A DNA stretch of 64,000 nt from Patescibacteria group bacterium (lineage in GTDB: Bacteria > Patescibacteriota > Dojkabacteria > J137), in the NCBI GenBank assembly GCA_016861265.1, contig BOLA01000001.1:1023745-1087744 (forward strand), written 5' to 3'. The position numbers and the translations under genes are program-made. The notes beneath the pieces were generated by a model. That model made no database searches. It was not told the DNA's origin and saw nothing but the letters and a program-made list of their open reading frames with translations. Below, in pieces: positions 1 through 53,610 of the stretch (its first letter is position 1; every line of letters starts with the position of its first letter).

Positions 1-612
1 TTTAGACCAATCTGCATATTTTTCTTTTAAATCTTCTAAATTTGGTATTCCATATTTCATTCTCAAGTTATCTAGTCGAACTTTTCTATTAGGATCATAT
101 TTAGAAATTCTCTCTGAAATCATCTCATACGGATCAAACGCAGGATATTTAGTATGGAATTTATCGGCATAAGTAACCAGTTCTTCTTCAACTGTTACAG
201 GAACATAATCTTTAATCTCAACTTCTAAATTTTCTCTTTCAATATCCTCTTTGGTAAGACCTGTCGCTGTATGAACTTCGCAAAATCTGGCATACTCTTC
301 TCCGAAGCCTTCTGATCTAACAATATTTCCACCGACAAAAGCATGTTGTAGTGGAATGAGTTTTGATGAAGTATTAAGTTCATCATCGTAACAAGGGTAC
401 ATACCAATATCATGCAATAAAGCACCGGCTTCAAGGAGATCACGATTAACTTTAATACCTTTAGTTTCTTCTAAAGTATCTGCTAATCTGACAGCTATTT
501 GTCTAACAATATCAGAATGTGTCCAGACCAATTCCAAATACAGCTCAGGAAAATTACCTTGTTTATGCTTTTGATGTAATTCTTTAATTTTTTGTTGTAG
601 TTCAGCGTTCAT
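1..612 (-). CDS. HD/HDIG-domain metal-dependent phosphohydrolase (C-terminus runs off window edge)
   Basis: ATG at 610-612 (minus); the frame stays open to position 1; translation contains ...LEAGALLHDIGMYP..., an HDIG-type motif. Missing from the ORF track because no stop lies inside the window. The start is followed 17 nt downstream by the GT2 stop, so it is the last gene of the operon. Confidence 0.55.
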   Translation of the reverse strand, partial: MNAELQQKIKELHQKHKQGNFPELYLELVWTHSDIVRQIAVRLADTLEETKGIKVNRDLLEAGALLHDIGMYPCYDDELNTSSKLIPLQHAFVGGNIVRSEGFGEEYARFCEVHTATGLTKEDIERENLEVEIKDYVPVTVEEELVTYADKFHTKYPAFDPYEMISERISKYDPNRKVRLDNLRMKYGIPNLEDLKEKYADWSK

Positions 613-628
613 TTTTTATAAATAAAAA

Positions 629-1531
629 TTATTTAGTTGAATTAATTGAATTCCAGCTACCGCCTTGAAATTCAGGAATAGTGGATTCGCTATTTTCAGT
701 TATGATTTTACTTAATATATCTTTAAAGTAGAAAAATATTTCTTTTTCAATATTTTCATCCTTTAATTGGTCTACTACTTGGTTAATTATACTATTCTGA
801 TCAATTTTATTCTTTCTTCTACTGTTATAAACCTCCTCGAACTCAGGAAATTTTGCCATGATTTGTAAATATCCTTGATCGAATCTAGTTTCTTGTCGTA
901 AAAAGTCACCCCAACTTAGAGGTGGTTTATAAGCTACAATCGATGTTAAGAGAACTTTTACAGCCTCCCATCCAAACTTTTTAGCAACATTTAGTGTTAA
1001 CCAATTATCTTCAGAATGTATATCTTCGGGATAAATAATATTCAGATCACTTTTAAATGCTAAACATCTGCCTATAGGTATAACTCTTCCTCTTGCTAAC
1101 CTATATAATTCTTGACTTCTGAGGGTTTTATATAAAAGTGTTGTTTTATCTATGGACTCATATGTTGGGACATCTAATGCACCAATCAGTTTTATTAAAG
1201 GATTTTCTAATTCGTTAATTAATAATGCTATAGTATTTTCCTTAATTCTACAATCAGAATCAATTTGCATAATTATCTCTCCCTGGCTTTCTTTGATTCC
1301 TTTATTTAAAGCTTTTGTCTTGCCAGATGTTTTCAGTTTTATAAGTTTAAAGTTGTTTAGCTTCTCATGGATAAGATATTCTTCAACTATCTTTACTGTG
1401 TTATCAATTGATCCATTCTCTAAAATTAAAACCTCATATTCAATATCTAAAATAGAGTTTTGTATATCTTTCAGTAAATTTATGATATTTTTATGTTCAT
1501 TGTGAGCTGGGATTAGAATACTAAGTTTCAT
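629..1531 (-). CDS. family-2 glycosyltransferase (soluble, GT-A fold)
   Basis: N-terminus LSILIPAHNEHKNI...LILENGSIDNT...IDSDC carries the GT2 DxD-type motifs. No TM segments. Its start overlaps the GT9 stop (1528-1531). Confidence 0.7.
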   Translation of the reverse strand: MKLSILIPAHNEHKNIINLLKDIQNSILDIEYEVLILENGSIDNTVKIVEEYLIHEKLNNFKLIKLKTSGKTKALNKGIKESQGEIIMQIDSDCRIKENTIALLINELENPLIKLIGALDVPTYESIDKTTLLYKTLRSQELYRLARGRVIPIGRCLAFKSDLNIIYPEDIHSEDNWLTLNVAKKFGWEAVKVLLTSIVAYKPPLSWGDFLRQETRFDQGYLQIMAKFPEFEEVYNSRRKNKIDQNSIINQVVDQLKDENIEKEIFFYFKDILSKIITENSESTIPEFQGGSWNSINSTK

Positions 1532-2724
1532 TTTATAAATTTTGTAATATGTTGAATAATGATTTTTTCATTTATATTAAACACCCATTCATTTTTTCCT
1601 TTAATCTTTTCATCTATCTCATCTCTTCTAAGGGACATATTATTTTTTGTTAAATACTTAGCCAATTTAGTCGCAATTGGAATGACATTTGATTTCCCAG
1701 TGCTCCATTTCCCAAAATCATGTCTACTATACAATATGAAGACTTTAGGTAATTGATTAGTTGTTGAATTTTTACTCATAGCTGCAAGATGGGAAAACCC
1801 TGTGTCATTACCTATAACAAATTTGCATCTTGAGAAAATGTAGGACAAGATTTCAAAATCTTCAGTATCAATTAGAATAATGTCTTTGTGTTTAGTTAAT
1901 AATTTTTTTACTTTAAACCACTCTTCAGGAGATTCTTCTTTCCAATTTGCTATTAAAAAGCACCTTGATCGACTAAGCTTTCGTTTTAATGTTTTATATA
2001 AATTCAAGAACTTAAGAGTTCCGTACCTTTTTTCAATCTCGCCTGCTTGACTGATAATAGCAATAGATTCAATATTGTCCGAAAGTTTAACCTTATATTT
2101 ATTTTCAACTTTTTCTTCAATACTTTTATCATATTGTAAATTAAATATTGGAAGTGAATCATTTGGATTTGATTTTAATCTAACTCCTAATTCTCGCTCA
2201 AAAGTGAGGAAATATCTTGCTGGTCTAGAAATATATTCAATACTATGTTTTTTATTTATAAACTTGGGATATATATAATTCTCACTATTGAAAATTACTG
2301 GATAATTTTCTAAAGTAAATGGGTCATCATCAGTTACTAAAGCAACTTTTGTTCCTGAATTATGTTTATCTTTAAAATAGTCAATTGCGTTATTCACTAT
2401 TTCTGCACTTTCCAATATATCTATATGTCTTAATAAATTAGAAAATGTACTGTCAAGTATATATTTAGGCAAATTGTTTGGTCTTGTAATCAATAAAAAT
2501 TCGTGAGTAGCCTGAATTACAGATAAGAATAGAAAGGAATCACCTAATGGTTTCCAGTACATACTAAATACAACTTCTTCACATTCAAGTAATCCTTTTT
2601 TTAATGTCTCATTAATTTCATATCCAGTAATGGCCTCTCCATACTTCATTTGAGGTCTATCATAATATAGCTCTACACGAGCAGTTTCAGTTGTAATATA
2701 TTTCTTGTAGGTTAAATTTTTCAT
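1528..2724 (-). CDS. family-9 glycosyltransferase (ADP-heptose:LPS heptosyltransferase-like)
   Basis: C-terminal motif KFVIGNDTGFSHLAAMSK matches the GT9 (WaaC/WaaF/WaaQ) signature GND(S/T)GxxHLAAA. Overlaps its neighbours on both sides by 4 nt. Confidence 0.65.
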   Translation of the reverse strand: MKNLTYKKYITTETARVELYYDRPQMKYGEAITGYEINETLKKGLLECEEVVFSMYWKPLGDSFLFLSVIQATHEFLLITRPNNLPKYILDSTFSNLLRHIDILESAEIVNNAIDYFKDKHNSGTKVALVTDDDPFTLENYPVIFNSENYIYPKFINKKHSIEYISRPARYFLTFERELGVRLKSNPNDSLPIFNLQYDKSIEEKVENKYKVKLSDNIESIAIISQAGEIEKRYGTLKFLNLYKTLKRKLSRSRCFLIANWKEESPEEWFKVKKLLTKHKDIILIDTEDFEILSYIFSRCKFVIGNDTGFSHLAAMSKNSTTNQLPKVFILYSRHDFGKWSTGKSNVIPIATKLAKYLTKNNMSLRRDEIDEKIKGKNEWVFNINEKIIIQHITKFIK

Positions 2725-3323
2725 ACTCTTTTAAACCATAATAGACTTATTTTTTTCTTAGCTCCTGGCTTATAGTGTTCAGGAGGATTTACATAATTAA
2801 TCTCAATATTTGGGTGTTCCTGCCCGTAAATCCCATATTCCATCAATAACTCATTCAATTTATCCAAACCAGCTCTTGGATAAGCAACGTAAACAGAATT
2901 ACCTTCATTATATTCCCAAGTCAAAAAAGCATTAATGTTTCTTGCAACAATTGCAATATCCGTTGAAAATGGCGGATCAAATATAACAGTATTAAATTGA
3001 TGTTGAAATCTTGCAATTAATTCTTTTGTATTTGCATCACTCGCATGGCTATGAAGTCCTCTTTGCAAATCATATAGCCAAAATTGTCCCTCTGGATATA
3101 AATTGACTAATCGTCCATCTGTATCAAATACAAATACATCTCTTCTTCCACTATTTATTAATGCCTCTCCAACTGAAGGAGTACAAAGACATGCTGTACA
3201 GCCCGCAGCTAAATCGGCTAATTGCCTAATAGTATTATTATCAAAAAAATATTGTTCATTGCTCTGATTCTCTTCAATTTTATAGATATCTAAATCATCT
3301 TTTCCTGAGTTCATAATCCACAC
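2721..3323 (-). CDS. class I SAM-dependent methyltransferase with (D/N)PPF amino-methyltransferase motif
   Basis: VFDTDGRL (motif I-like) and VIFDPPFS (motif IV DPPF, as in N6-adenine, glutamine and lysine N-methyltransferases of the N6AMT/EFM5-like family). 200 aa. Confidence 0.5.
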   Translation of the reverse strand: MWIMNSGKDDLDIYKIEENQSNEQYFFDNNTIRQLADLAAGCTACLCTPSVGEALINSGRRDVFVFDTDGRLVNLYPEGQFWLYDLQRGLHSHASDANTKELIARFQHQFNTVIFDPPFSTDIAIVARNINAFLTWEYNEGNSVYVAYPRAGLDKLNELLMEYGIYGQEHPNIEINYVNPPEHYKPGAKKKISLLWFKRV

Positions 3324-5851
3324 TCTCTAATAAATTGTTTATATCTTTCTTCAAAACTTAATCCACGATTAAAGATGAAAAAAGAACTAATATCCACTCG
3401 AGAAGTCTTTAATTTCTCAAGAGTTTTTAATGATAGAAATTCGTAATCAGTGTTTAATCCATATACTCGTCTTAAGTATAGTTCTTGATCTAATTTTGAT
3501 ACAAAATATAATATTGCCCTTACTTCAGAAGTTCGCTCAGGGGAAGAAGCTATAAGACGAGTTAATTCAGCTTCTTTATCCTCATCCCAATAATCTGAGA
3601 TAAATCTCCCAAGTTGGTGTCCTAATATTGCTACTCCTTTGTAAATATCTCTTTTTTCAAAATCTAAAGCATATTGAAAAATTCTGGCATACTCTTCTAA
3701 TGTAATTTCTGTATCTTCGGATTGAAGAAACCTTTTTTCAAAGTTTCCAGTTCTGACCATAACTTTACTTTTATCTGGAATATCAAACTGGTGAAACATC
3801 CTTTGAATTATATCTGTATTAAAAATATCTGCGAACCATGCAAGCCTATTCAAATTTTTCATATATATGTTAATTGCATTATCGTCATCCAATTCGATAA
3901 CATTATCAAAATCAATTACGTATACTTTTCCATCTTCTCCCCTTATCAAATTACGTGGTGCTAAATTTCTAAAGAATATACCTCTTTCAACTAAAGCATC
4001 TTCTATTGCTGTAGTTGTTCTCTGTAATTCTCTATCAAGATATCCTTTATTTTGATCTAATACAGCGGTTTCATAATCAATCCCCATATATTTAGAGATA
4101 AAATAAAAGTCTCCTTCACTCCGTACAATTGCAATCTCTGGAACAACCCCAACATTTTCAAGAGATGCATTATTCAATAATTCTGCAATTCGATAATAAT
4201 TATCTAAATATGTTCTATCATTCCTAAGACTAACTGCTACGTAAGGAACACCTTCGCAAAACATAAGTTTAGGTGAGGTCCCAGATATATCTAATACCAT
4301 TGCACTGCTTGTAATTGGAATGCTTTTTCTAAAAAATTGGGCGAAAGTTCTTCCCCTCAAATCTCTTTCTAGTCCTTTGGCTAACGGATTAGAATTTGTA
4401 TTTACTATTTCCCCTTCTTCGGGTAATTCCAATTTATCTTTATCATTAAAACTTATGGTAGTAGGTATATTTACTTTCTCAGAATCTTCTTGCACTCCGT
4501 CTGTTCCTGAAAGAATCTCATGGATATGTCTTCCTTTCTGTAATTCTTCTAGTAAGTATTCTTCACTAAAATCTCCTCTTCTTATTACATCTACAGCTAT
4601 ATCAATGTAATAATTCTTAATAGTTTCTGAAATATAAGGTGAAGTACTAAGCACCCCTTCAATTCTATTTTTCATAATAGTTATTTCATTCAGTTCTGGA
4701 TTATCTTTAATTGCCGGACCAATTTTAGGTGAAAATTTGGAGTCAACATTTTGTTGCAATTCTCTATAAAATCCGTTTAATTGGTTAGTTCTTTCCGGTG
4801 AAGATTTACCTTCATTCTCAACATACACGCCAAGAACTTCCATAGCATTGCCTCTTGAGAAAATTCTAGGAGTTACATAAATATCGGTTATTCCATACCC
4901 ATCTTGTAATACCCACGTCATTGCAGGCCCTTTGATTAATCTTAAATATGTTCTTGCTTCGTTACTCATATTAGGTTTTAATGCAACAATAAGAGTATAA
5001 AGTTGTTTATAACTTTCATCTGAAAGATGGAACTTAGATAACCATTCTCTTGCAATATTTACTCTTTCTCTTCGAGATAATAAGTTTCCATCAGTCGAAG
5101 TAATTAAATCTTCAAGTTCGGAATAAATAGAATAAGCTTTGAATTGAATTTCATTTAAAAGTATAAAAATTTCCCCACTTAAATCTTCAGGTTCAAATGC
5201 TTTTGATACTGAAATTTGAAGACCCATAGGAAAAGAATTTCCTTTAAATCTGACGGAATATCTATCATTTAAGCTATATCCGTTTATCACTTCATTAACA
5301 ACACATTCCAATATTTCAGTTGCGGCTACTCCATATGGATCATTATGGTCATAAAGATCTTGTCCTTCTAATTCTTCTAAATGTGCTAATGAATAACCAG
5401 ATCTATCTTCTACAAATATATGTGCATGTAGCTGGTCTATTGTTTGCACCTTAACTTCTGTGCCATCTGGTAGATATTTATAAGGTATTGATTGGCAATC
5501 TCTCTGTTGATTGATTGAGATTGTAGGGTATCCATAACCTAACTGCCTATGCATACTATTTGCTAGACTAAATAAAACCCTCATAAACTCTTTACCTTCT
5601 TGTAGATCAAGATCAGTGAGTTGTGAAGCTTTGCTATTTTTAAGTATTAACATACCATCAGCTGGGTTCTCGACATATTGAGTTTTTTTTCTAACAAATT
5701 CTATTTCACCAAGAATATCTGAATGAAGGTGAAGTACACTGTCGTCAAAAATAGTCCCTTCTGATGGGCTTGTAATTTCATTTTGTGGTATTACCCTTTT
5801 TATGACTGTTAAGTCATCATCAAACTTTACATCCATATTTTTTAATTCCAA
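3311..5851 (-). CDS. large protein with C-terminal eukaryotic-like/choline-aminoglycoside kinase fold (probably non-canonical catalytic loop); N-terminal ~550 aa unassigned
   Basis: C-terminal ...GIFFRNLAPRNLIRGEDGKVYVIDFDNVIELDDDN aligns to Brenner's HNDLxxxNIL plus the IDFEY/DFG region of ChoK/APH/ePK-like kinases, but with Asn in place of the catalytic Asp. Overlaps MTase and decarboxylase ORFs. Confidence 0.45.
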   Translation of the reverse strand: MELKNMDVKFDDDLTVIKRVIPQNEITSPSEGTIFDDSVLHLHSDILGEIEFVRKKTQYVENPADGMLILKNSKASQLTDLDLQEGKEFMRVLFSLANSMHRQLGYGYPTISINQQRDCQSIPYKYLPDGTEVKVQTIDQLHAHIFVEDRSGYSLAHLEELEGQDLYDHNDPYGVAATEILECVVNEVINGYSLNDRYSVRFKGNSFPMGLQISVSKAFEPEDLSGEIFILLNEIQFKAYSIYSELEDLITSTDGNLLSRRERVNIAREWLSKFHLSDESYKQLYTLIVALKPNMSNEARTYLRLIKGPAMTWVLQDGYGITDIYVTPRIFSRGNAMEVLGVYVENEGKSSPERTNQLNGFYRELQQNVDSKFSPKIGPAIKDNPELNEITIMKNRIEGVLSTSPYISETIKNYYIDIAVDVIRRGDFSEEYLLEELQKGRHIHEILSGTDGVQEDSEKVNIPTTISFNDKDKLELPEEGEIVNTNSNPLAKGLERDLRGRTFAQFFRKSIPITSSAMVLDISGTSPKLMFCEGVPYVAVSLRNDRTYLDNYYRIAELLNNASLENVGVVPEIAIVRSEGDFYFISKYMGIDYETAVLDQNKGYLDRELQRTTTAIEDALVERGIFFRNLAPRNLIRGEDGKVYVIDFDNVIELDDDNAINIYMKNLNRLAWFADIFNTDIIQRMFHQFDIPDKSKVMVRTGNFEKRFLQSEDTEITLEEYARIFQYALDFEKRDIYKGVAILGHQLGRFISDYWDEDKEAELTRLIASSPERTSEVRAILYFVSKLDQELYLRRVYGLNTDYEFLSLKTLEKLKTSRVDISSFFIFNRGLSFEERYKQFIRECGL

Positions 5852-7500
5852 CCAGCAGGTCCAGTACTTCTAATTAAGTTTTGTTGCTCTTTACCATCAA
5901 AGATAATTTCATTAATTTCTTTATGAATATCTTTGTGATAATGTTTTGCTTTTTCAAATAAATAAGATAAGGAATTGCTCAAACTCTCCTCTGTATACAA
6001 TGGATTTCCTACAGTAATACTCATTACAAAATATCTTTCTGATGAAAGATTTAATCCTATGGTATCCCCAATATCATGTAATTTGAATTCATCTAGGCAA
6101 ACATCACCTGATTCGTACAGCTCTTGATTAATTTTATGTGTATATTTATCGATACAACTTTTAATTGATAGCTTTTGTTTATCAGTTAATTCCTCTTGAT
6201 CTACAATGGACTTTACATCTTTTGGATAATATACAAATGCCATTCTATAAAAATCCATTTCGTGAAAGTTTGTGAAGTATCTGCTATCTTCGATCTTATT
6301 CCAAACAAATTGGGCATCTTCATCTCTTTTCTCAACTACTTCACCTAAATAATCCTTACCCAATGCTTTAATCATTAACCAAATCTTTAAAGATTCAAAA
6401 CCTCTTGATCCAAAGAATGGTGTTATATATCCAAGATCCCATGATTCACCATTTCTTACCTGTTCAGGATATCGAGTGAACTTTACTAAATTATCTCTTT
6501 GTTTAAACATCACATAGCTAGAAGGATAAGTTACAAACATTCCCTTATGTGGATCTAAGGCTACAGAATCCGCCATTTCAATTCCTTTCAAGTCTCTTCC
6601 CTTCAATTTATTTGAGAACAATAAGCTTCCTCCATGACAAGCATCTACATGTAGCCATGTATTATATTTCTGGCAGATTTGAGCAATCTTTTCGATATTA
6701 TCTATACACGCTGTTCTACAATTACCTGCAACTGCTACAACCATAAAAACATCATTTGATCCAACGTGTTCTTTGAGGATATTTTCTAAATCGTTCAAAT
6801 TTGTAGTAAAGTCTGCATTTGATTCTGCTGAAATTATATTGGCGTTTCCCAATCCTAAATGGTGCATTGCCGAGTTATATGAATAGTGGCTTATTTTTCC
6901 TGAGAGAACAATCTTCGGTGTAACGGATAAGGAGGTTAATCCTTTTTCCTTAATTTCGGGATATTTTTGATTTAAAGCTGACATTATTGCTATATGGTTT
7001 GACATATGACCACCTGTAGTCCACATTCCTCCAACTTCTGATAAAGATTTTATCTCACTAGTAGGTTTAAAGTCATATCCAATCAACTCTCTAAGCCATT
7101 CAATAAGTTGAATTTCTATGAAAGTAGCAATTGTTGCACTTCTATCAAAAGCAATAAGATTTTGATTAAGAAACTTTGAAAAAATCTCACCTGCCATTGC
7201 GTGCTTAGAATTTGCGGAATCTGGGAATGCAATATAATTCAAGTCAGATTGAGATATAGAATATTCACCTATCTCTTGTAGTGTGTCCAGCACCGTATCA
7301 TCATCGATTCCATTTGCTGGTAAAGTATCTTTTAATTCCTTCAGGAAAGCTTCAGGTGTTTTATACTTTAATACCTTATTATCTCGAATTTCGCCACTAA
7401 AGAACTTAAGTCCAAGATCTATTATTTTATTAAAAAATTCCTGTTCACTTTCTGATTTCCCAGATATAAAATTGTTAGTTATTTTTTTGTTGCTTTTCAT
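5842..7500 (-). CDS. PLP-dependent group II amino-acid decarboxylase
   Basis: SGGHMSNHIAIMSAL, HVDACHGGS and the PLP-lysine motif DPHKGMFV. The 552-aa size fits the DABA/tyrosine/glutamate decarboxylase family. Confidence 0.75.
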   Translation of the reverse strand: MKSNKKITNNFISGKSESEQEFFNKIIDLGLKFFSGEIRDNKVLKYKTPEAFLKELKDTLPANGIDDDTVLDTLQEIGEYSISQSDLNYIAFPDSANSKHAMAGEIFSKFLNQNLIAFDRSATIATFIEIQLIEWLRELIGYDFKPTSEIKSLSEVGGMWTTGGHMSNHIAIMSALNQKYPEIKEKGLTSLSVTPKIVLSGKISHYSYNSAMHHLGLGNANIISAESNADFTTNLNDLENILKEHVGSNDVFMVVAVAGNCRTACIDNIEKIAQICQKYNTWLHVDACHGGSLLFSNKLKGRDLKGIEMADSVALDPHKGMFVTYPSSYVMFKQRDNLVKFTRYPEQVRNGESWDLGYITPFFGSRGFESLKIWLMIKALGKDYLGEVVEKRDEDAQFVWNKIEDSRYFTNFHEMDFYRMAFVYYPKDVKSIVDQEELTDKQKLSIKSCIDKYTHKINQELYESGDVCLDEFKLHDIGDTIGLNLSSERYFVMSITVGNPLYTEESLSNSLSYLFEKAKHYHKDIHKEINEIIFDGKEQQNLIRSTGPAGWN

Positions 7501-8169: not shown

Positions 8170-8934
8170 TCACATCCTAGGGGTATTTTCTTGATGAGTC
8201 TCGATCAAGAAAATTGACATGGAGCCACTCAAATACACAGCTAATTCGGCATGACGAGGTTTAGGTTTTATCTTTTTAATCCCTTTTCCATGAGCATCAC
8301 CGAACTTATTTCTCATTGTACCTAAACCATTCACAACCGCTGAACATCCCCCTAATATTTGCTTAAACAAATCCTCACTGTGTTGATCTGGACTAAGTTT
8401 TAGTTCGTGAGCTACATTTTTATACAAAACTGATAAGTCAGTATTATCTGTATACGGCATACTTCTTTCATCCAAGATGAACTTGCAAGTACTTTCAAGA
8501 ATTGTCCTTGCGGTTGTAATTGCACCCTCAGGATCACTAACCTTTCTTTCTAAAGCTTTCTGTATTTCTTTATGTATTGAATTTGCTCCATATTTCTTTA
8601 ATCTTTCTTCAAAAGTATCGTCTGTAAAGATGCCATTAATTCCAGGTACTTCAAGTACATTTAAGAGATCTTCAAATGATTCCCAAATATACTCCCTTCT
8701 TTCAGCATAAGTATCAAATTTTTTTTTGATAAATTGCCAGAACTGACCTAAATCTCTTTTAGTTCTAACAAAATCAGGTAGTTTTTCGGAGACTGAAGTA
8801 TTATCTAAAAAGTACTTTCTCAGATATGTGTACTCTTGTGCGTCAGATTCTATACCAGTTGCTCTAGAAACCAGTATATCCTGTAAGTATTCTGCTTTTT
8901 CGTAATCATTTTGTAAGTGACTGAGTGAAGGCAT
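8170..8934 (-). CDS. AbiJ-like abortive-infection protein with C-terminal HEPN (Abi_C) domain
   Basis: C-terminal LGTMRNKFGDAHGKG matches the HEPN Rx4-6H motif (R-NKFGDA-H). Size (254 aa) and architecture resemble AbiJ N-terminal domain plus Abi_C. Confidence 0.5.
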   Translation of the reverse strand: MPSLSHLQNDYEKAEYLQDILVSRATGIESDAQEYTYLRKYFLDNTSVSEKLPDFVRTKRDLGQFWQFIKKKFDTYAERREYIWESFEDLLNVLEVPGINGIFTDDTFEERLKKYGANSIHKEIQKALERKVSDPEGAITTARTILESTCKFILDERSMPYTDNTDLSVLYKNVAHELKLSPDQHSEDLFKQILGGCSAVVNGLGTMRNKFGDAHGKGIKKIKPKPRHAELAVYLSGSMSIFLIETHQENTPRM

Positions 8935-9183: not shown

Positions 9184-9274
9184 TGGCGGAGAGGACAGGA
9201 TTCGAACCTGCGACCCGATTGCTCGAGTACAGTCTTTCCAGGACTGCGCACTAGACCAACTATGCGACCTCTCC
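9184..9274 (-). tRNA. tRNA-Ser (anticodon GGA), long variable arm, encoded CCA
   Basis: Reverse complement GGAGAGG...CAGTC-CTGGAAA-GACTG...long variable arm...CAGGTTCGAATCCTG...CCTCTCC-G-CCA. Anticodon stem 5 bp with a 7-nt loop, U33, anticodon GGA, discriminator G73. Confidence 0.85.
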
Positions 9275-9285
9275 AATAGGATTAA

Positions 9286-9357
9286 AGGTGTTGGCGGGAA
9301 TCGAACCCGCGAATAGCAGTTTTGCAGACTGCCGCCTTACCACTTGGCCACAACACC
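9286..9357 (-). tRNA. tRNA-Cys (anticodon GCA), no encoded CCA
   Basis: Reverse complement GGTGTTG-TGGCCAAGTGGTAAGGCG-GCAGT-CTGCAAA-ACTGC-TATTC-GCGGGTTCGATTCCCGC-CAACACC-T. Acceptor and T stems are perfect; anticodon GCA; discriminator U73, as expected for Cys. Confidence 0.85.
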
Positions 9358-12232: not shown

Positions 12233-14119
12233 GTGTCTAAGCATTACCGCCGTTCCCTGTACAAGGGTCAGTTCAAGCAGAACGCTCTTAGGAGTTTTCT
12301 GGCAATCCTTTGGGAGTACAGGAGTTTTATGTACTTTCCAGCATTGATGGTGTTGCTGCTCGAAGCGGCTCAAATGGGTGCAAGGGTTTTTATTTCTGAA
12401 ATCCTAGCACGAATTGAGCTGGCCGATTGGAGTGCACTAGGCGTTTTGTTGCTGAGCATGTTTTTGTATAACATGCTTACTCTTGCAATCGATGCAAAGA
12501 TGGTTCGCGTTGTAATTGAGCGAGTCGGCTACGACTTTGCATTTGCATACGAAAACAAGGTTCTAAGGCACGTAGCAAGACTGGGACACACATTCAATTC
12601 ATCTTTTCCTATCTCTGTAACCCTGGATAGGATAGCTAAAATCGAACGTGTGTCGGATCTAGTTGAACAGGGTTTCTGGACTTTGTTCAACAATGTTTTT
12701 CAGGGCATAATCAGTTTGATTGTGCTAAGCATTTATCTGCCTGCTGCCGTACCTGTGGTGCTTGTGGTGTTCTTTCTCTTCATAAGGTTTAACAACATTA
12801 TGATTGAGAAACAGGCTATTGTACGCAAACGCCGCAAGGATCGAGGTGAAGATAAGGCTGAAATTCGAATGCGTCTAGTTGCAGCCAATACGACACTGCT
12901 GTCCAATGGCGCATTGGAACGCACTGAGCAGACAGTCTTTAAAAGCTCCTCTCACCTAAAGCGTGTTGGAATTCTGGAGCTGATGCATGTACTTCGTGGA
13001 AATGGAATTATCCGCGATGTGCTGCTCTACTTTGGCCGTTTTGCGGTACTTGCCTTTGCGGTTAGTATGGCTCAGGCTAAGGTAATCGATATTCCCCGCC
13101 TTGTGCTGGTCTACACCGTTTCCGAAACCATGTTCATTGGAATGTGGGGTGTGGTTCGCTTTGTGTACTCGTTCATGTACGAAAGTCCATCAATTCTCAA
13201 GATTGATGAACTCATGCAGATTACACCGACAGTAGTGGAACCTGTAAATCCTGTATCAATTCCTGCTGGTCCGTTAGGGTTTGCATTCAACGATGTAAAC
13301 TTCACGTATCGTGGAATTGAGATTCAAGGTAAAAAGCAGGTTGATCCATACTTTGGCGAAAATCTAGCTCGAGCAAACCATTTAAGGCAACAACTCGGTG
13401 TTCACCCCTATCAGGTAAAAAAGGCTGAAGAACAGCCTTTGCATTTGTGCGGAGTGAACTTAAACATTATGCCAGGGCAGAAGGTTGCCTTGGTAGGACA
13501 TAGTGGCGCAGGTAAGAGCACACTGTCACTGCTGCTTTCTAAGCTTCAGGTGCCTGACTGCGGTCAACTGCTTGTTAACGGAGTGCCGATCGAGCAACTC
13601 GATGGCTACGAACTGCGAAGCAGAATTGCCGTCGTGCCACAAGGTTCGAACGTAGACATATTCAATGACACCCTGTTGCATAACATTACACTTGGCGACG
13701 AGCGTTTTGAAGTGGCAGATGTTATTGAAGCCCTAAAGGTAGCGGAGCTTTGGAACACTGTTCTGGAGTGGCCGCTAATGCTCTACGAAACAATCGGTGA
13801 ACGCGGCAGAACTTTATCGGGAGGTCAGCAGCAGCGGGTTGCAATCGCAAGAGCAGCAATACGTAAGCCTGATCTCATTATTCTAGATGAAGCTACAAGC
13901 GCACTCGATACCGAAACCGAACGTCTGGTTCAGGCTTCGCTTAATCGATTGCTGCAAGGTAGAACAGCAGTGATTATCGCTCATAGACTTTCTACAATCA
14001 AAGACGCGGACATGATTGTAGTAATGCGCGATGGTTCAATCGGCGAAATGGGAACTTGGGACGAGCTTGTACATACGGAAGGAGATTTTGCAAAGCTCGT
14101 TAAGGCACAAACTCTTTAA
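12233..14119 (+). CDS. ABC exporter, fused permease + ATPase (GTG start); GC content far above surroundings
   Basis: Six-TM N-terminal half. NBD with Walker A GHSGAGKST, signature LSGGQQQRVAIARA and Walker B IILDEATSALD. A counted ~100-nt sample is about 52% GC, against about 30% in the flanks. Confidence 0.85.
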   Translation: MSKHYRRSLYKGQFKQNALRSFLAILWEYRSFMYFPALMVLLLEAAQMGARVFISEILARIELADWSALGVLLLSMFLYNMLTLAIDAKMVRVVIERVGYDFAFAYENKVLRHVARLGHTFNSSFPISVTLDRIAKIERVSDLVEQGFWTLFNNVFQGIISLIVLSIYLPAAVPVVLVVFFLFIRFNNIMIEKQAIVRKRRKDRGEDKAEIRMRLVAANTTLLSNGALERTEQTVFKSSSHLKRVGILELMHVLRGNGIIRDVLLYFGRFAVLAFAVSMAQAKVIDIPRLVLVYTVSETMFIGMWGVVRFVYSFMYESPSILKIDELMQITPTVVEPVNPVSIPAGPLGFAFNDVNFTYRGIEIQGKKQVDPYFGENLARANHLRQQLGVHPYQVKKAEEQPLHLCGVNLNIMPGQKVALVGHSGAGKSTLSLLLSKLQVPDCGQLLVNGVPIEQLDGYELRSRIAVVPQGSNVDIFNDTLLHNITLGDERFEVADVIEALKVAELWNTVLEWPLMLYETIGERGRTLSGGQQQRVAIARAAIRKPDLIILDEATSALDTETERLVQASLNRLLQGRTAVIIAHRLSTIKDADMIVVMRDGSIGEMGTWDELVHTEGDFAKLVKAQTL

Positions 14120-37135: not shown

Positions 37136-38863
37136 ATGAGATTTAATGCATCGGCAAAAGAGGTTAAGGCATTTATTCTACTATTAATATTAATGATTGT
37201 AGTTGGATTTATTAATGGCGTACCCTTTGTTTTCGGCGATGCTTACGGTTACTTTCATGTCGCAAAATCTTCAATTGACAATGGCTATTACCCCTCATCT
37301 CAACAACCGGAATACTTTGATTATACGGGACATGCAGTAGTTGAATCCAATGAGAAATACATAACTCCATATAGTGTTGGGCAAACAATTTTATATTTCC
37401 CCTTCTTAACAACGTCGATGTTATTTAGTAAGGGAACAATATATACAGATTATTACAAGGCATTTAATGGTCATTCATTTGCTGATGGCATGGCAATTCT
37501 TGCAGCTGCAATGTTCTTTGCATATCTAGGAATAATTTTCTGTTATTTATTTCTTAAACAGTTGGGTTTTACAAAAAAGGTATCATTTTATTCCTCACTA
37601 GCAATGTTTATTGGAGTTTACTTAACATCGTATACCTTTGAACAACCTGGTTATAGTCATGTCTATGAGTTCTTTTCTTATTCAGCATTCTTGTATTTCT
37701 TTATAAAATTTTTCTTTGAGAGAAGTTCTAAATATTTATATATTGCTACAATTTTTGCGGGACTTTTAGTGTTAATTAGAATAGTCGATTCTGTGTTGTT
37801 AATCCCTCCATTTTTATTTGTGCTTTATAAAATGCGTAGCAAGAAGCTTCTACTGACTACTAGTCTTATTGTGGCTGTATTTGGAATCTTCTTTTTACTG
37901 TACAACTATATATCTTATGAAAATCCGTTAACTGTTGGTTATTCTACAAATGGGCAGAATGGGTTTAATTTTGGACTAAATATTATAAATTTGCTATTTA
38001 GTGATACACGAGGCTTGCTTGTCTGGTCGCCAATAGTATTTGTTGCACTAATTGGCATAGCGCTGTATGCAAGAAAATCAAAAATTGCGTTAGTCTTCTT
38101 CCTTATACCAGCACTTTTTCTAATGGTTGTTTATAACTTTTGGGGAAACTGGTGGGGAGGAGTTTCTACTGGACAAAGATTTTTAACTGTACTAGCACCA
38201 ATTTTTGCTCTAGGAATTGCATATTTCTACAATCAGATTAAATTTAAGAGACTTACCAAGTTTGGTCTTCTCGTACTTGTTCTATTTTCAACTGTTACAG
38301 CAATATTTTACAGATTAACTCCAGTATTAAGAGTTAGTTCAGAGTTTAGAAATGACCAGTATGCGTTAACGACACCCGTAACGGAAGACTACAGACTAAC
38401 CGATTTATTTAAATACCACATTAACTTAATTTCGAATAAAAAAAGTCTTAGTGGTTATTTAAATCAGCTTAAAGATAGCTTTAATGGAGGTAGAAGTATT
38501 CTTTTGCTTGCCTTGGGGCAAACCGATCCACTTGTTAGGATTAACCAGGTTGAGGATTTAAAATACAAGGTTTACTTTATACCAAATAATATCAATAAGA
38601 ATATAAAGGCTAATTTAATATTAAGCATAAATTACAAGGATTTATACAAGTCATTTTTAGTATCTGGGGTTGATATGCATAAGGCTGAAAGTGCATTCAT
38701 TACCTGCACCAAATCATTAGACTGCAGCTCCACTGAAATTAATCTAATTCCAATTCTCGCGGATAAATCAAAAGAAAACTTTGCCAGAGTAAGCAATAAT
38801 TCAAAAATCTCTGTGTATGGTGAAAATGTAAGGGTTAACTATGTAAATCTTAAACTTAAATAA
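37136..38863 (+). CDS. polytopic membrane protein (many TM helices plus C-terminal soluble domain); possible GT-C-type glycosyltransferase
   Basis: More than 10 hydrophobic segments in residues 1-400 followed by a roughly 170-aa hydrophilic tail. No diagnostic motif. Confidence 0.5.
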   Translation: MRFNASAKEVKAFILLLILMIVVGFINGVPFVFGDAYGYFHVAKSSIDNGYYPSSQQPEYFDYTGHAVVESNEKYITPYSVGQTILYFPFLTTSMLFSKGTIYTDYYKAFNGHSFADGMAILAAAMFFAYLGIIFCYLFLKQLGFTKKVSFYSSLAMFIGVYLTSYTFEQPGYSHVYEFFSYSAFLYFFIKFFFERSSKYLYIATIFAGLLVLIRIVDSVLLIPPFLFVLYKMRSKKLLLTTSLIVAVFGIFFLLYNYISYENPLTVGYSTNGQNGFNFGLNIINLLFSDTRGLLVWSPIVFVALIGIALYARKSKIALVFFLIPALFLMVVYNFWGNWWGGVSTGQRFLTVLAPIFALGIAYFYNQIKFKRLTKFGLLVLVLFSTVTAIFYRLTPVLRVSSEFRNDQYALTTPVTEDYRLTDLFKYHINLISNKKSLSGYLNQLKDSFNGGRSILLLALGQTDPLVRINQVEDLKYKVYFIPNNINKNIKANLILSINYKDLYKSFLVSGVDMHKAESAFITCTKSLDCSSTEINLIPILADKSKENFARVSNNSKISVYGENVRVNYVNLKLK

Positions 38864-51819: not shown

Positions 51820-53610
51820 ATGCAAAGATTGTTAGAAAAGATTAATGCCCATCCAAGGGCTACACTTATTGCGGTCGGAACAACTGTTTTCGGAGCCGCC
51901 GCATTAGTTATTTTACTTATGTTCCTTTCGTTAAGAGAGAGTGTTGTTAACCCCACTGTAACTCCAGAAGAGGAAAAAATGGTTTTATCCGAGGTTATAA
52001 AGAACAATCCAAGTGGAGTTATTAATAATCCAGGTAATTCAAGCACACCGATGCCTTCACCTAACCCTACACCTGTGCCAACACCAAACCCTACACCAGG
52101 TGTAGTGAATCCGAATCCTGAGACTCCTCAGCCAGAACAACCAGTGGCCCCAAATATAAATGAGTATAACTATAGAGTTACTAGGGTTACTAACCAAAGA
52201 GGTCCATCCTTTGATGCATGCCAAATGTATTATGGCGGAGGTTATGGTTATGGACCGGATGTAACAGAAAGCGATTCAGTATCTGAATATTATGAATATT
52301 TTGAAAGATACGTGAGCATTTATAAGAATCAAACAAAAGAAGATAATAAATTATCCTCTTACTACTTAAGCAAGTATGGAAGAAATGTTAATTCAACAAC
52401 ATATTACCTAGGAGGTAGTTATGCTGTAGAGAATTCTTATAAACCGTATGATCAATTTGATAATCAGCAAGACACTCAAGTTGTCTCTTACCCTACTTAT
52501 ACTGCTGACGAATATATTAAGTTATATTTTGGTTCCAATGCATCTGTTACAGGTGTTGAAACTGATTCAAATGGAGTTAAACACTATACAATAAGAAGCA
52601 GTTATACTTCTTATTGTGATCCGTCTTACGAGCAATACCTAGTTAGTGATGTAGTTCCACCGGCTTTAAGAACTATTTATTCAGTTTATAGAGTTAACGG
52701 TCAAACCTTCTCAATAGAACAAATAAAGACTTACATTGATGAAGTAAAAGATGCGAATTTAATTAAGGTATCAACTACAGAATCAACAAGATCTAAGGTA
52801 ACTTACACTCAAGTAGAGGCTCAGTTTAGGATTGCTTCTAATGTTCCGATAACAAAAAATGATTATAGTCATATTACATATAACTACGATCCTCTAAAAT
52901 CAATTAGGGATAATCTAACGTATCTTGCCATGATAAATGACGATATTTTATTACCATCTTCTACAGAAGGCCTTACAAATTTATGGGTAGATGGTTATGT
53001 GGATGCTAATTATGTAAATTCCACAGAATTCTATCAGGATAGAGACTTTTTCCCTGACTCTGACTGGGGAGATGAATTATATGCAAGATATAATACATCT
53101 GCTAATTATGTTAATAAGACATTGTATTCGATATCAATAACTCCTGAGTATGGTAAATACTACTCTATTTCTGCATATAAAGATGATCAACTATTTGATG
53201 ATATTATTTCAGAATTAATGAAGGGTACTGCTACTTCTAAGAGTATTGAAGATATTACAATAAATGTATCGGGTTTACCTGTAGAAGGTAAGAAGATTTC
53301 TAAAGTATTTACATATAAATTCCCAACATCCTACGGTGTATCTTACCCTGTATCTTATAGCTCAGATTCAAATACTAATTATTTTACTAACTATGTATTT
53401 GAGTACAATGGGAGAGTTTATGGCGTAAGCTACTATAGTTACAACCAACAAATGGATTTAGATATGAATGAATATAGTATTTATCCACTAACAACAGAAC
53501 TTGAAGCAGAAACAATGAGGAATTTGTTAACAGATATGTGGTCTAGGTATTTACAAATAGTAAATCCTGTTAGCTACCCTACGAGTTTTCCAGTAAGTTA
53601 TTCTTACTAA
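51820..53610 (+). CDS. secreted or membrane-anchored Pro/Thr-rich, Tyr-rich protein with C-terminal (V)SYP(V/T)S(Y/F) repeats
   Basis: Signal anchor AVGTTVFGAAALVILLMFLSL. Linker PSPNPTPVPTPNPTPGVVNPNPETPQPEQPVAPN. Repeats SYGVSYPVSYSS and VSYPTSFPVSYSY near the C-terminus. Confidence 0.55.
   Translation: MQRLLEKINAHPRATLIAVGTTVFGAAALVILLMFLSLRESVVNPTVTPEEEKMVLSEVIKNNPSGVINNPGNSSTPMPSPNPTPVPTPNPTPGVVNPNPETPQPEQPVAPNINEYNYRVTRVTNQRGPSFDACQMYYGGGYGYGPDVTESDSVSEYYEYFERYVSIYKNQTKEDNKLSSYYLSKYGRNVNSTTYYLGGSYAVENSYKPYDQFDNQQDTQVVSYPTYTADEYIKLYFGSNASVTGVETDSNGVKHYTIRSSYTSYCDPSYEQYLVSDVVPPALRTIYSVYRVNGQTFSIEQIKTYIDEVKDANLIKVSTTESTRSKVTYTQVEAQFRIASNVPITKNDYSHITYNYDPLKSIRDNLTYLAMINDDILLPSSTEGLTNLWVDGYVDANYVNSTEFYQDRDFFPDSDWGDELYARYNTSANYVNKTLYSISITPEYGKYYSISAYKDDQLFDDIISELMKGTATSKSIEDITINVSGLPVEGKKISKVFTYKFPTSYGVSYPVSYSSDSNTNYFTNYVFEYNGRVYGVSYYSYNQQMDLDMNEYSIYPLTTELEAETMRNLLTDMWSRYLQIVNPVSYPTSFPVSYSY

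Follow-up and report, generated by a model that had tools for sequence, protein, structure and literature searches.

The locus described here raises the question of what a kinase-like protein does when asparagine occupies the position of its catalytic aspartate. The gene in question lies in a 64,000-nucleotide stretch of contig BOLA01000001.1 from a Patescibacteria group bacterium (assembly GCA_016861265.1, positions 1,023,745 to 1,087,744), which is called the window throughout. The initial annotation described an 846-amino acid (aa) protein at 3311-5851 whose C-terminus carries a choline/aminoglycoside kinase catalytic loop with Asp replaced by Asn, and whose preceding ~550 residues matched nothing recognizable. 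We find instead a fusion of two modules, an N-terminal one of the HIT superfamily and a C-terminal one of the protein-kinase-like (PKL) superfamily, encoded in a conserved gene cassette that also includes a group II pyridoxal phosphate (PLP)-dependent decarboxylase. Two families for which no Pfam or NCBIfam model reaches threshold are hereby placed in these superfamilies, and they are joined in a cassette that is not described in the literature: full-text searches found no publication on the cassette, on either family, or on the HIT::PKL combination.

The 846-codon open reading frame (ORF) at 3311..5851 does exist. It lies on the minus strand and its opening codon is TTG. However, both P0001 (the database copy, 100% identity) and P0002 (81% identity, from a Candidatus Saccharibacteria metagenome-assembled genome, or MAG) begin at the ATG of 5836. 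Because of this shared start, translation most likely initiates at the ATG at 5834-5836 rather than at the upstream TTG, which predicts a protein of 841 aa. Residue numbers throughout are those of the 841-aa protein, and the positions of all features are collected in Table 1. The part that had appeared unrecognizable resolves into the HIT module (residues 1-376), a linker, and a helical extension (residues 390 to ~520) that belongs to the kinase-like module.

A divergent protein-kinase-like module

The match of the fusion protein to the Pfam Pkinase model is marginal, with an E value of 0.003 for the whole protein (below threshold) and 0.0009 for the C-terminal third. When the single sequence is used as query, the sole match among PDB sequences is TBK1, whose VHRNIKPGNIM is aligned to the loop with an E value of 1.2. 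Individual Pfam matches among 31 homologues of the C-module are likewise all weak (Pkinase in 11/31, APH in 4/31 and Choline_kinase in 2/31). The profile of these 31 homologues matches solved Ser/Thr and Tyr kinases with an E value of 6e-5, and it aligns R-N-L-A-P-R-N...I-D-F onto H-R-D-L-K-P-E-N...S-D-F. The AlphaFold model of residues 390-841 has a mean predicted local distance difference test score (pLDDT) of 93 and a predicted template modelling (TM) score of 0.91. A Foldseek search of the PDB with this model returned protein kinases only (probability 1.0, E ~1e-5), with a TM score of only ~0.25 that reflects local similarity.

In PKA, the catalytic and metal-binding residues are Asp166, Asn171 and Asp184. 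The corresponding residues of the fusion protein have precisely this spacing, with 5 positions between Asn624 and Asn629 and 13 between Asn629 and Asp642. Because the family profile, the AlphaFold and Foldseek results and the canonical spacing agree, the kinase likeness goes beyond chance, and residues 390-841 form a divergent PKL module, as the first reading of the C-terminus had proposed. The fold assignments of both modules and the fusion itself are far more secure than the pathway model developed below.

The segment on which that first reading was based, IFFRNLAPRNLIRGEDGKVYVIDFDN, is located at residues 620-645. Its interpretation was accurate with regard to the individual positions. The profile alignment and the spacing put Asn624 at the catalytic-Asp position, the profile alignment puts Phe622 at the position of the HRD histidine, and the metal-binding region is retained, with the metal-ligand equivalents Asn629 and Asp642 invariant in the 31 homologues. 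The attribution to choline or aminoglycoside kinases does not stand. The fusion protein has no APH or Choline_kinase Pfam match, and neither PF01633 nor PF01636 matches the isolated C-terminal third at E<=10. When Brenner's motif, H-x-D-x-x-x-x-N, is compared with F-R-N-L-A-P-R-N, only the Asn is retained, with Phe and Asn in place of the His and the Asp. The loop is closer to HRDLAARN, which is the catalytic loop of tyrosine kinases, and Arg628 at position +4 of L-A-P-R-N is placed as in those enzymes. The metal motif is I-D-F-D in the fusion protein and I-D-F-E in a clade of homologues that have Asp at the catalytic position, and this fits choline/aminoglycoside kinases without being specific to them. 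Three further families were considered and rejected. For LanKC (NF038151), 43 loop residues match with 14.7 bits against a cut-off of 575, and there is no lyase or cyclase domain, whereas for the Kdo kinase and CotS families there are matches only to catalytic-loop fragments, far under the cut-offs.

Several protein kinase hallmarks are missing from the family. The column of the beta3 VAIK Lys is occupied by Ser in the fusion protein and by N, D, G, K or E in the homologues. An invariant alphaC Glu was not found in the 31-sequence alignment, nor was a conserved Gly-rich loop found among the C-module homologues. Lys523 (in S-P-K-L), which occupies a position that is mostly K or R, might substitute for the beta3 Lys. 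In the AlphaFold model, a helix follows the DFG equivalent directly, where protein kinases have an activation segment.

These features bear on one possible function, in which the module is a Hanks-type signalling protein kinase, or a pseudokinase of this type, that controls the neighbouring enzymes through protein phosphorylation. The best sequence and structure matches are indeed eukaryotic-type protein kinases, and the L-A-P-R-N loop is tyrosine-kinase-like. Nevertheless, we consider this function highly improbable given the lack of conservation of the Gly-rich loop, the beta3 Lys and the alphaC Glu, and given the helix in place of an activation segment. In addition, there is strict synteny or fusion with metabolic enzymes across phyla, and the C-lobe is large, conserved and helical with an acidic signature, which is typical of small-molecule kinases.

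The catalytic-base position is variable

The initial annotation allowed for a misalignment in which the homologues would have a conserved Asp opposite Asn624. Asp is not conserved at this position, but neither is Asn: the column holds Asn in 15, Asp in 12 and Gly in 4 of the 31 C-module homologues. In a simple neighbour-joining tree, the fusion protein is located in an Asn clade of 17 members. Two of these, P0005 and P0013, have Asp instead and branch at separate points within the clade. The Asp clade proper is monophyletic, and the Gly forms comprise an archaeal-type member and GC-rich members. The distant relatives also differ at this site, with FWGDFAPRN (Asp) in Bacillus velezensis and SGCIPRN (Gly) in Kitasatospora.

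At an overall identity of ~20%, Pro627, Arg628, Asn629, Asp642 and the acidic residue at 644 are invariant or nearly so. The same is true of Trp667, Asp670, Glu700, Glu727, Gly739, His740, Gly743, Asp748, Glu755 and Asp783, and of a signature near the N-terminus of the module, S403...Y410...H437-P-H439. In the distant Bacillus relative, the His740 position is Lys.

As judged from this alignment, the side chain at the catalytic-base position appears to be dispensable for whatever the family does. Since the family does not depend on that side chain, the argument that an Asp became an Asn and the enzyme therefore died is weakened. Moreover, a site that accepts Asn, Asp or Gly alike is probably not required to provide a general base for the phosphoryl acceptor. 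The acceptor could be anionic or already activated, or the base could come from a conserved residue elsewhere, for example His437, His439, His740, Asp670 or Asp748. Perhaps the ligand is a cationic amine, as is suggested by the many invariant acidic residues of the C-lobe (Asp670, Glu700, Glu727, Asp748, Glu755 and Asp783).

The prediction of a pseudokinase or an altered mechanism is affected accordingly. The Asp is indeed absent and the alignment was right, but the simple dead-kinase version of the prediction loses force through the interchange of Asn and Asp. A true pseudokinase would bind ATP or another ligand via Asn629 and Asp642 without transferring phosphate. Acting as a scaffold or allosterically, it would hold substrate for the HIT module and the decarboxylase or regulate them. 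Asn624 in place of the catalytic Asp and the unconserved beta3 Lys and alphaC Glu are in keeping with such a role for the Asn clade, and the permanent attachment or proximity of the module to two genuine enzymes is compatible with a regulatory subunit. There is also precedent in HER3 and JAK JH2, which carry the same Asp-to-Asn change in the HRD motif, keep the equivalents of Asn171 and Asp184, and bind ATP with one cation while showing at most weak activity (PMC4718504). This role is nevertheless unlikely in our judgement. A single orthologous clade contains both Asn and Asp forms (Asp in P0005 and P0013) with no other change in the active site, as if the two states were equivalent, and more than 15 polar residues near the loop and in the C-lobe are invariant at ~20% identity, which is more typical of a catalytic site. 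An inactive module would also leave the pathway with no step in which ATP is spent to supply the HIT module with a phosphate ester.

The likeness to HER3 and JAK JH2 is confined to the Asn that replaces the HRD Asp, the retained loop Asn and DFG Asp, and, for HER3, the Arg at +4, which is evident when the HER3 loop, HRNLAARN, is compared with FRNLAPRN. HER3 and JAK JH2 function in eukaryotic signalling, keep the beta3 Lys and have a fixed Asn, whereas the PKL family lacks the beta3 Lys and varies among Asn, Asp and Gly. The partners of the PKL family are metabolic enzymes and its C-lobe is unrelated. Specific homology is not detectable beyond the superfamily level.

A GalT-like HIT module

A faint HIT/GalT likeness had been suspected for the stretch LHAHIFVED, and this suspicion proved to be well founded. 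The stretch is located at residues 136-144, and His137 and His139 are invariant in 29 homologues of the N-module. The Pfam HIT model matches residues 62-144 of the fusion protein with an E value of 0.0056 and 17.7 bits, which is below its threshold of 21.5 bits, and no GalT Pfam model matches the fusion protein. Among the 29 homologues, HIT matches 4 weakly and the GalT models match none. Other residues that are invariant in the 29-sequence alignment are Lys50, Tyr54, Gln131, Thr132, Asp166 and Gly205, and Asn109, Gln110, Gly329 and Asn330 are nearly so. The family motif is VQTxxxLHxHx[F/Y/V], where the third position of the histidine triad is Phe in the fusion protein and neither His nor Gln anywhere in the family.

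The profile of this family matches a HIT protein, the mycobacterial Ap4A phosphorylase and FHIT, wherein QTIDQLHAHIF is aligned to QTVKHVHVHVL of FHIT. The AlphaFold model of the module (pLDDT 91.6) has two alpha+beta halves. Its top Foldseek matches in the PDB are 4qvu (DUF4931), 1zwj/1z84/2h39 (the Arabidopsis GalT-like ADP-glucose phosphorylase), 6k5z (a uridylyltransferase) and 1gup/1hxq (E. coli GalT), with E values of 8e-4 to 3e-2, probabilities up to 1.0, and TM scores of 0.26-0.34 that indicate local similarity. Thus, residues 1-376 constitute a nucleotidyl transferase-like module of the GalT branch of HIT proteins.

In the GalT reaction, the nucleotidyl group is carried covalently on a histidine, and phosphate esters serve as acceptors. 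By analogy with His166 of GalT, His139 is the likely nucleotidyl-accepting residue of the fusion protein. The module shares with the GalT branch its two tandem HIT-like halves and the H-x-H that ends the first half after N-Q...Q-T. It differs in having H-x-H-x-[F/Y/V] rather than H-x-H-x-Q/H, in its score below the threshold of the HIT hidden Markov model (HMM), and in the lack of conserved Cys/His metal ligands: the 29-sequence alignment contains no invariant Cys and no further invariant His that could form the metal site of class I GalT.

Distribution of the fusion and of its modules

Word-index homologue searches yielded few relatives: the single sequence retrieved 2 proteins and the profile 6. 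The family became visible only in an exhaustive search of 1.84 billion representative proteins with P0001 as query. The 65 matches split cleanly into those that cover only residues 8-376 (proteins of 360-390 aa) and those that cover only residues 390-835 (420-460 aa), and among the matches listed only P0002 spans both modules. The HIT::PKL fusion is known from this window, from the near-identical contig of P0001 and from one Saccharibacteria MAG. In every other lineage examined the modules are encoded by separate genes.

There are other domain combinations that involve the same modules. The PKL module is fused to the decarboxylase in P0061 (1029 aa), to a Pol-beta nucleotidyltransferase in P0037, whose contig carries archaeal GatD/GatB genes, and to an APH domain in P0059. 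The HIT module is joined to a RelA/SpoT-like domain in P0039. A phage origin was considered and rejected, as no relatives were found in viral contigs.

A conserved cassette with a PLP-dependent decarboxylase

The fusion gene is part of a tight minus-strand operon in which genes overlap or are separated by 5-16 nucleotides. The decarboxylase encoded directly upstream of the fusion gene has a full-length Pyridoxal_deC match (E 6e-46) and a secondary Pfam match to SepSecS. The gene order of the window is that of the Saccharibacteria MAG contig, and the corresponding proteins have 81-96% amino-acid identity.

Loci of the cassette were recovered from Saccharibacteria, an unclassified MAG, Amesbacteria, Shapirobacteria and several metagenomic contigs. 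In every such locus, the C-module gene adjoins an orthologue of the same decarboxylase. These orthologues are 48-63% identical, compared with 24-36% for the two modules, and the decarboxylase is therefore the most conserved partner. The PF10237-type methyltransferase is limited to the Saccharibacteria version of the cassette, and the other companions occur in the subsets of loci indicated in Table 1. No informative solved-structure or NCBIfam matches were obtained for the HD protein, for the GT9-family glycosyltransferase or for a ~580-aa companion.

Two archaeal-type contexts have no HIT module, and a Pol-beta nucleotidyltransferase occupies the corresponding position next to the decarboxylase and PKL genes. 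The role of the N-module is read as nucleotidyl transfer, for which this non-homologous exchange of HIT for Pol-beta is the strongest argument.

The decarboxylase orthogroup is much wider than the modules and includes representatives from TM6, Berkelbacteria, Bacilli, Bacillus velezensis, Kitasatospora and Streptomyces. In four unrelated contexts, namely two archaeal-type contigs, Bacillus velezensis and Kitasatospora, a gene for arginyl-tRNA synthetase (ArgRS) is located 1-5 genes from the decarboxylase gene. A C-module relative adjoins the decarboxylase in two of these (L016 and L019) and lies several genes away in the same cluster in the other two (L020 and L021). ArgRS is absent from the window and from all candidate phyla radiation (CPR) loci that have the HIT module. 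The neighbouring ArgRS might confer immunity, provide Arg-tRNA or offer a clue to the substrate.

One possibility is that the pathway is centred on arginine or ArgRS. Its product would be an amine derived from arginine, for example agmatine, or else a nucleotide-linked inhibitor of ArgRS against which the neighbouring ArgRS provides immunity, and the CPR cassette would be a variant. Apart from the four ArgRS contexts, L016 carries an ADI-family gene and the Saccharibacteria relative L001 one of the arginase family, and the conserved acidic pocket could bind a guanidinium group or a polyamine. However, this is distinctly improbable as an account of the cassette. ArgRS is missing precisely where the HIT module is present, the ArgRS genes in small archaeal genomes may be plain housekeeping copies, and no group II decarboxylase is known to act on arginine. 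The adjacency of ArgRS, together with the secondary SepSecS match, also prompted us to consider a tRNA-dependent conversion similar to that of PSTK and SepSecS. This was set aside in view of the full-length Pyridoxal_deC match and the free carboxylate that a decarboxylase would need.

A possible pathway to a nucleotide-activated amine

The combination of decarboxylase, PKL module and HIT module causes us to consider, tentatively and with a probability somewhat short of even, that these proteins form a short pathway to a nucleotide-activated amine for glycan decoration. The first step would belong to the decarboxylase, which would produce or act on an amine-bearing small molecule. Its substrate could also be a phospho-amino acid, in analogy with CobD. 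The PKL module would phosphorylate the amine-bearing molecule with ATP, and the HIT module, via covalent nucleotidyl-His139, would convert the phosphate ester to a donor linked to a nucleoside diphosphate (NDP). The donor would then be used or decorated by the neighbouring glycosyltransferases, nucleotide by-products or surplus donor would be hydrolysed by HD or NUDIX enzymes, and the optional methyl- or carbamoyltransferases would tailor the amine. In the clade represented by the window, the fusion of HIT and PKL modules would serve to channel the phosphorylated intermediate.

Some hints concerning the substrate are available. The nearest solved relatives of the decarboxylase are diaminobutyrate (DABA) decarboxylase, GAD65/67, CSAD and GADL1, all with small polar or acidic amino acids as substrates. 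We also count as a hint the amine-type methyltransferase (PF10237) or carbamoyltransferase that is an optional member of the cassette.

Several observations weigh against this pathway. Kinases of this fold that act on hydroxyl groups cannot normally do without the catalytic Asp. In a choline/ethanolamine-type kinase, a change to Asn or Gly should be crippling, and the Asn clade, the fusion protein among it, could be inactive or carry out other chemistry. Even ATP binding would be non-canonical, because the beta3 Lys and the alphaC Glu are not conserved. Glycosyltransferases of the GT2, GT4 and GT9 families use NDP-sugars, and no LicD-type or CDP-alcohol phosphotransferase, as would be needed to transfer a phospho-amine, was seen in the neighbourhoods. 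The pair of loci L007/L008 has the decarboxylase and PKL genes with no HIT module within 16 kb. Finally, the four ArgRS contexts, all of which lack the HIT module, are left unexplained by the model.

The variable base position invites a different chemistry as well. The kinase fold might act on an anionic acceptor, converting a carboxylate to an acyl phosphate or a phosphate to a pyrophosphate, or it might catalyse nucleotidylation or ligation in the manner of SelO or SidJ. These two proteins are kinase folds that carry out AMPylation (SelO) and glutamylation via an acyl-adenylate (SidJ). For example, a carboxylate could be activated such that the amine derived from the decarboxylase forms an amide on a glycan. 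Invariant metal ligands beside a base site that is Asn, Asp or Gly would be understandable in such a reaction, the missing Lys/Glu pair suggests a changed mode of nucleotide binding, and the solved decarboxylase relatives yield products of the beta-alanine, gamma-aminobutyric acid (GABA), hypotaurine or diaminopropane type, which offer a carboxylate or an amine. Unfortunately, neither the sequence nor the fold matches included SelO or SidJ, and the proteins that were matched are ordinary Ser/Thr and Tyr kinases. The GalT-type HIT partner is accounted for most simply if the kinase-like module releases a phosphate monoester, and the scheme is conjecture throughout. We therefore regard it, too, as unlikely.

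Comparison with known systems

The logic of the proposed activated-amine pathway has precedents. In eukaryotes, serine decarboxylase, ethanolamine kinase and a cytidylyltransferase provide a route to CDP-ethanolamine. This route in plants and Plasmodium (with the cytidylyltransferase ECT) and the LicA/LicC system illustrate how a group II PLP decarboxylase, a kinase-fold kinase and a nucleotidyltransferase can give NDP-amino-alcohols for lipids or glycans. The cassette resembles them in pathway logic and in the I-D-F-E of the Asp-clade homologues, which is as in choline kinases. It differs in that Brenner's His and Asp are absent, in that the nucleotidyltransferase is of HIT/GalT type rather than of cytidylyltransferase fold, and in having no LicD-like transferase nearby.

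The pairing of a kinase with a nucleotidyltransferase is found in sugar activation also. NahK and AmgK are anomeric kinases of the kinase fold that feed a sugar-1-phosphate nucleotidyltransferase (NahK with GalT/LnpC, AmgK with MurU). Kinase and nucleotidyltransferase are fused in HldE and in Bacteroides FKP, whose products feed glycosyltransferases, and GT9 enzymes classically use ADP-heptose. Similarly, GT9, GT2 and GT4 genes are syntenic with the HIT/PKL cassette. However, those pathways include no PLP decarboxylase and their domain families differ. A direct analogue of the ADP-heptose pathway, in which a kinase, a phosphatase and an adenylyltransferase feed GT9, was considered and retained as an analogy only: it explains GT9 and HD but neither the ubiquitous decarboxylase nor the archaeal trio that lacks glycosyltransferases.

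In the assembly of the cobamide nucleotide loop by PduX, CobD and CobU-CobY, a kinase (the L-threonine kinase PduX) is followed by a PLP decarboxylase that acts on a phospho-amino acid (the threonine-phosphate decarboxylase CobD), then by nucleotidyl transfer (CobU-CobY), with a phosphatase last. This order parallels the PKL::decarboxylase fusion P0061 and the HD, NUDIX and PHP neighbours. The folds are entirely different and no cobamide genes are nearby, such that the analogy is one of logic only.

By its sequence, the fusion protein thus resembles an activation enzyme of the kinase-plus-nucleotidyltransferase kind and appears to belong to no curated family. Its predicted structure is that of the PKL and HIT superfamilies at the level of the fold, and it departs from canonical HIT/GalT proteins in the third triad residue, in the metal site and in its score below the HMM threshold.

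Positions of features and other observations

Table 1. Features of the fusion gene and its operon in the window, and occurrence of cassette members and ArgRS genes in other loci. Positions are in the window unless a locus is named.
Feature	Position	Strand	Basis or remark
Gene for the 841-aa fusion protein	3311..5836	-	ATG 5834-5836, stop TGA 3311-3313; longer ORF runs to TTG at 5851
N-module, GalT-branch HIT-fold nucleotidyl transferase-like, two HIT-like halves, residues 1-376	4709..5836	-	Stand-alone homologues, AlphaFold, Foldseek, profile
HIT motif VQTIDQLHAHIFV, residues 130-142	5411..5449	-	His137 at 5426-5428, His139 at 5420-5422
PRIFSRGN, residues 323-330, motif of the degenerate second HIT-like half	4847..4870	-	Gly329 and Asn330 nearly invariant
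Linker KDNPELNEITIMK, residues 377-389, between the modules	4670..4708	-	Last seven residues (383-389) pLDDT <50
C-module, atypical protein-kinase-like, residues 390-841	3314..4669	-	Stand-alone homologues, AlphaFold, Foldseek, conservation
Family-specific N-terminal helical extension of the C-module, residues 390 to ~520	H437-I-H439 at 4520-4528	-	Alignment
Catalytic loop FFRNLAPRN, residues 621-629	3950..3976	-	Asn624 codon AAT at 3965-3967
D642-F-D644, DFG equivalent	3905..3913	-	Asp642 invariant; third position always D or E
GHQLGRFISD, residues 739-748, C-lobe family signature	3593..3622	-	Gly739, His740, Gly743 and Asp748 invariant in the 31-sequence alignment
Group II PLP-dependent decarboxylase	5842..7500	-	Directly upstream of the fusion gene, 5-nt gap
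PF10237-type methyltransferase (N6-adenine/lysine-amine methyltransferase family)	2721..3323	-	Overlaps the end of the fusion gene
GT9-family glycosyltransferase	1528..2724	-	Kept in 6 loci
GT2-family glycosyltransferase	629..1531	-	Kept in 6 loci
HD (HDIG) phosphohydrolase	1..612	-	Start at 612, cut by the window edge; kept in 5 loci, NUDIX instead in others
N-module gene, other loci			Adjacent in all loci except the pair L007/L008
GT9 and GT2, other loci			Six loci
HD, other loci			Five loci
NUDIX, other loci			Four loci
NodU/CmcH-type carbamoyltransferase, other loci			Three loci
GT4, other loci			Four loci
~580-aa protein, other loci			Full-length in four loci; 123-aa fragment in a fifth
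ArgRS genes	L016 1600-3534; L019 6834-8540; L020 11717-13450; L021 1794-3554

The ~580-aa companion (570-592 aa) is encoded at L002 3180-4892, L008 6911-8689, L009 14969-16699 and L010 9073-10851. It is 33-42% identical between loci, is faintly like PLP enzymes of Cys/Met metabolism, and is usually found after the NUDIX gene or before the HD gene. It is absent from the window. There are two window ORFs of similar length, of 575 and 596 aa (37136-38863 and 51820-53610, plus strand), which match no Pfam family at E<=1e-5 and are unrelated to this companion.

A protein of ~260 aa that has no Pfam family is encoded at L013 1016-1801, L020 804-1586 and L021 11647-12456. It is common to these three non-CPR clusters, which have the decarboxylase and a C-module relative. 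A C-module homologue of the Gly form, P0063, is located in an apparent natural-product cluster (L014 605-12402, GC 0.63) with genes for two radical S-adenosylmethionine proteins, a thiamine pyrophosphate enzyme, two APH-type kinases, an aldo-keto reductase, a histidine phosphatase, a TyrRS/TrpRS-like protein and a GT2 enzyme. This cluster lacks a PLP decarboxylase.

In the Saccharibacteria locus L001, the region upstream of the cassette (1190-5368) encodes a response regulator, a ThiF-like protein, a 322-aa protein of unknown family and a seven-transmembrane histidine kinase, and it continues with a methyltransferase and a nucleoside 2-deoxyribosyltransferase. The window does not extend over the region that would match L001 1190-5368. 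Downstream of the L001 cassette there are arginase-family, GT2, CmcI-type methyltransferase, NUDIX and DUF4915 genes.

The ~670 nucleotides upstream of the decarboxylase gene in the window have no called gene except a 58-aa ORF. At 8170-8934 and 9184-9357 (both minus strand), an Abi_C-domain protein (abortive-infection C-terminus) is encoded between the cassette and a tRNA-Ser/tRNA-Cys pair. The window is AT-rich, with a GC content of ~0.32, whereas a 628-aa ABC-transporter ORF (PF00005) at 12233-14119 on the plus strand has a GC content of 0.42-0.50. This island of sharply different composition suggests a recent horizontal acquisition. In addition, there is a 608-aa protein (55187-57013, minus strand) whose only Pfam match is ThyX (Thy1) over residues 95-300, and this length is about twice the usual size of ThyX.

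Biological implications

These results assign two sizeable families that had no model to known superfamilies and tie both of them to one conserved cassette with a PLP decarboxylase. The PKL family is of interest in its own right, since an Asp that is considered essential switches among Asp, Asn and Gly while the remaining site stays frozen. The matched Asn and Asp orthologues are a natural experiment on whether the catalytic Asp is dispensable in a small-molecule kinase fold.

The pair of decarboxylase and kinase-fold protein has relatives in candidate-phyla bacteria, on archaeal-type contigs, in Bacillus and in Kitasatospora. It is conceivable, if rather doubtful, that the decarboxylase, the atypical kinase-fold enzyme and an interchangeable nucleotidyltransferase (HIT or Pol-beta) represent a biosynthetic module that has not been recognized before. 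Such a module would rely on a kinase-fold reaction that needs neither the canonical Asp nor the beta3 Lys. This could be, for example, the transfer of a phosphoryl or nucleotidyl group to an anionic or amine acceptor, assisted by a base that has moved to another position. The module would yield a new nucleotide-linked amine that decorates the surface glycans of episymbionts or, where the genes are beside ArgRS, is directed at an aminoacyl-tRNA synthetase. The replacement of HIT by Pol-beta and the linkage to ArgRS are handles for finding this product. Saccharibacteria and other candidate-phyla bacteria are episymbionts whose envelope biochemistry is little known. A putative activated-amine pathway encoded beside GT9, GT2 and GT4 points to the decoration of surface glycans, which may matter for attachment to the host.

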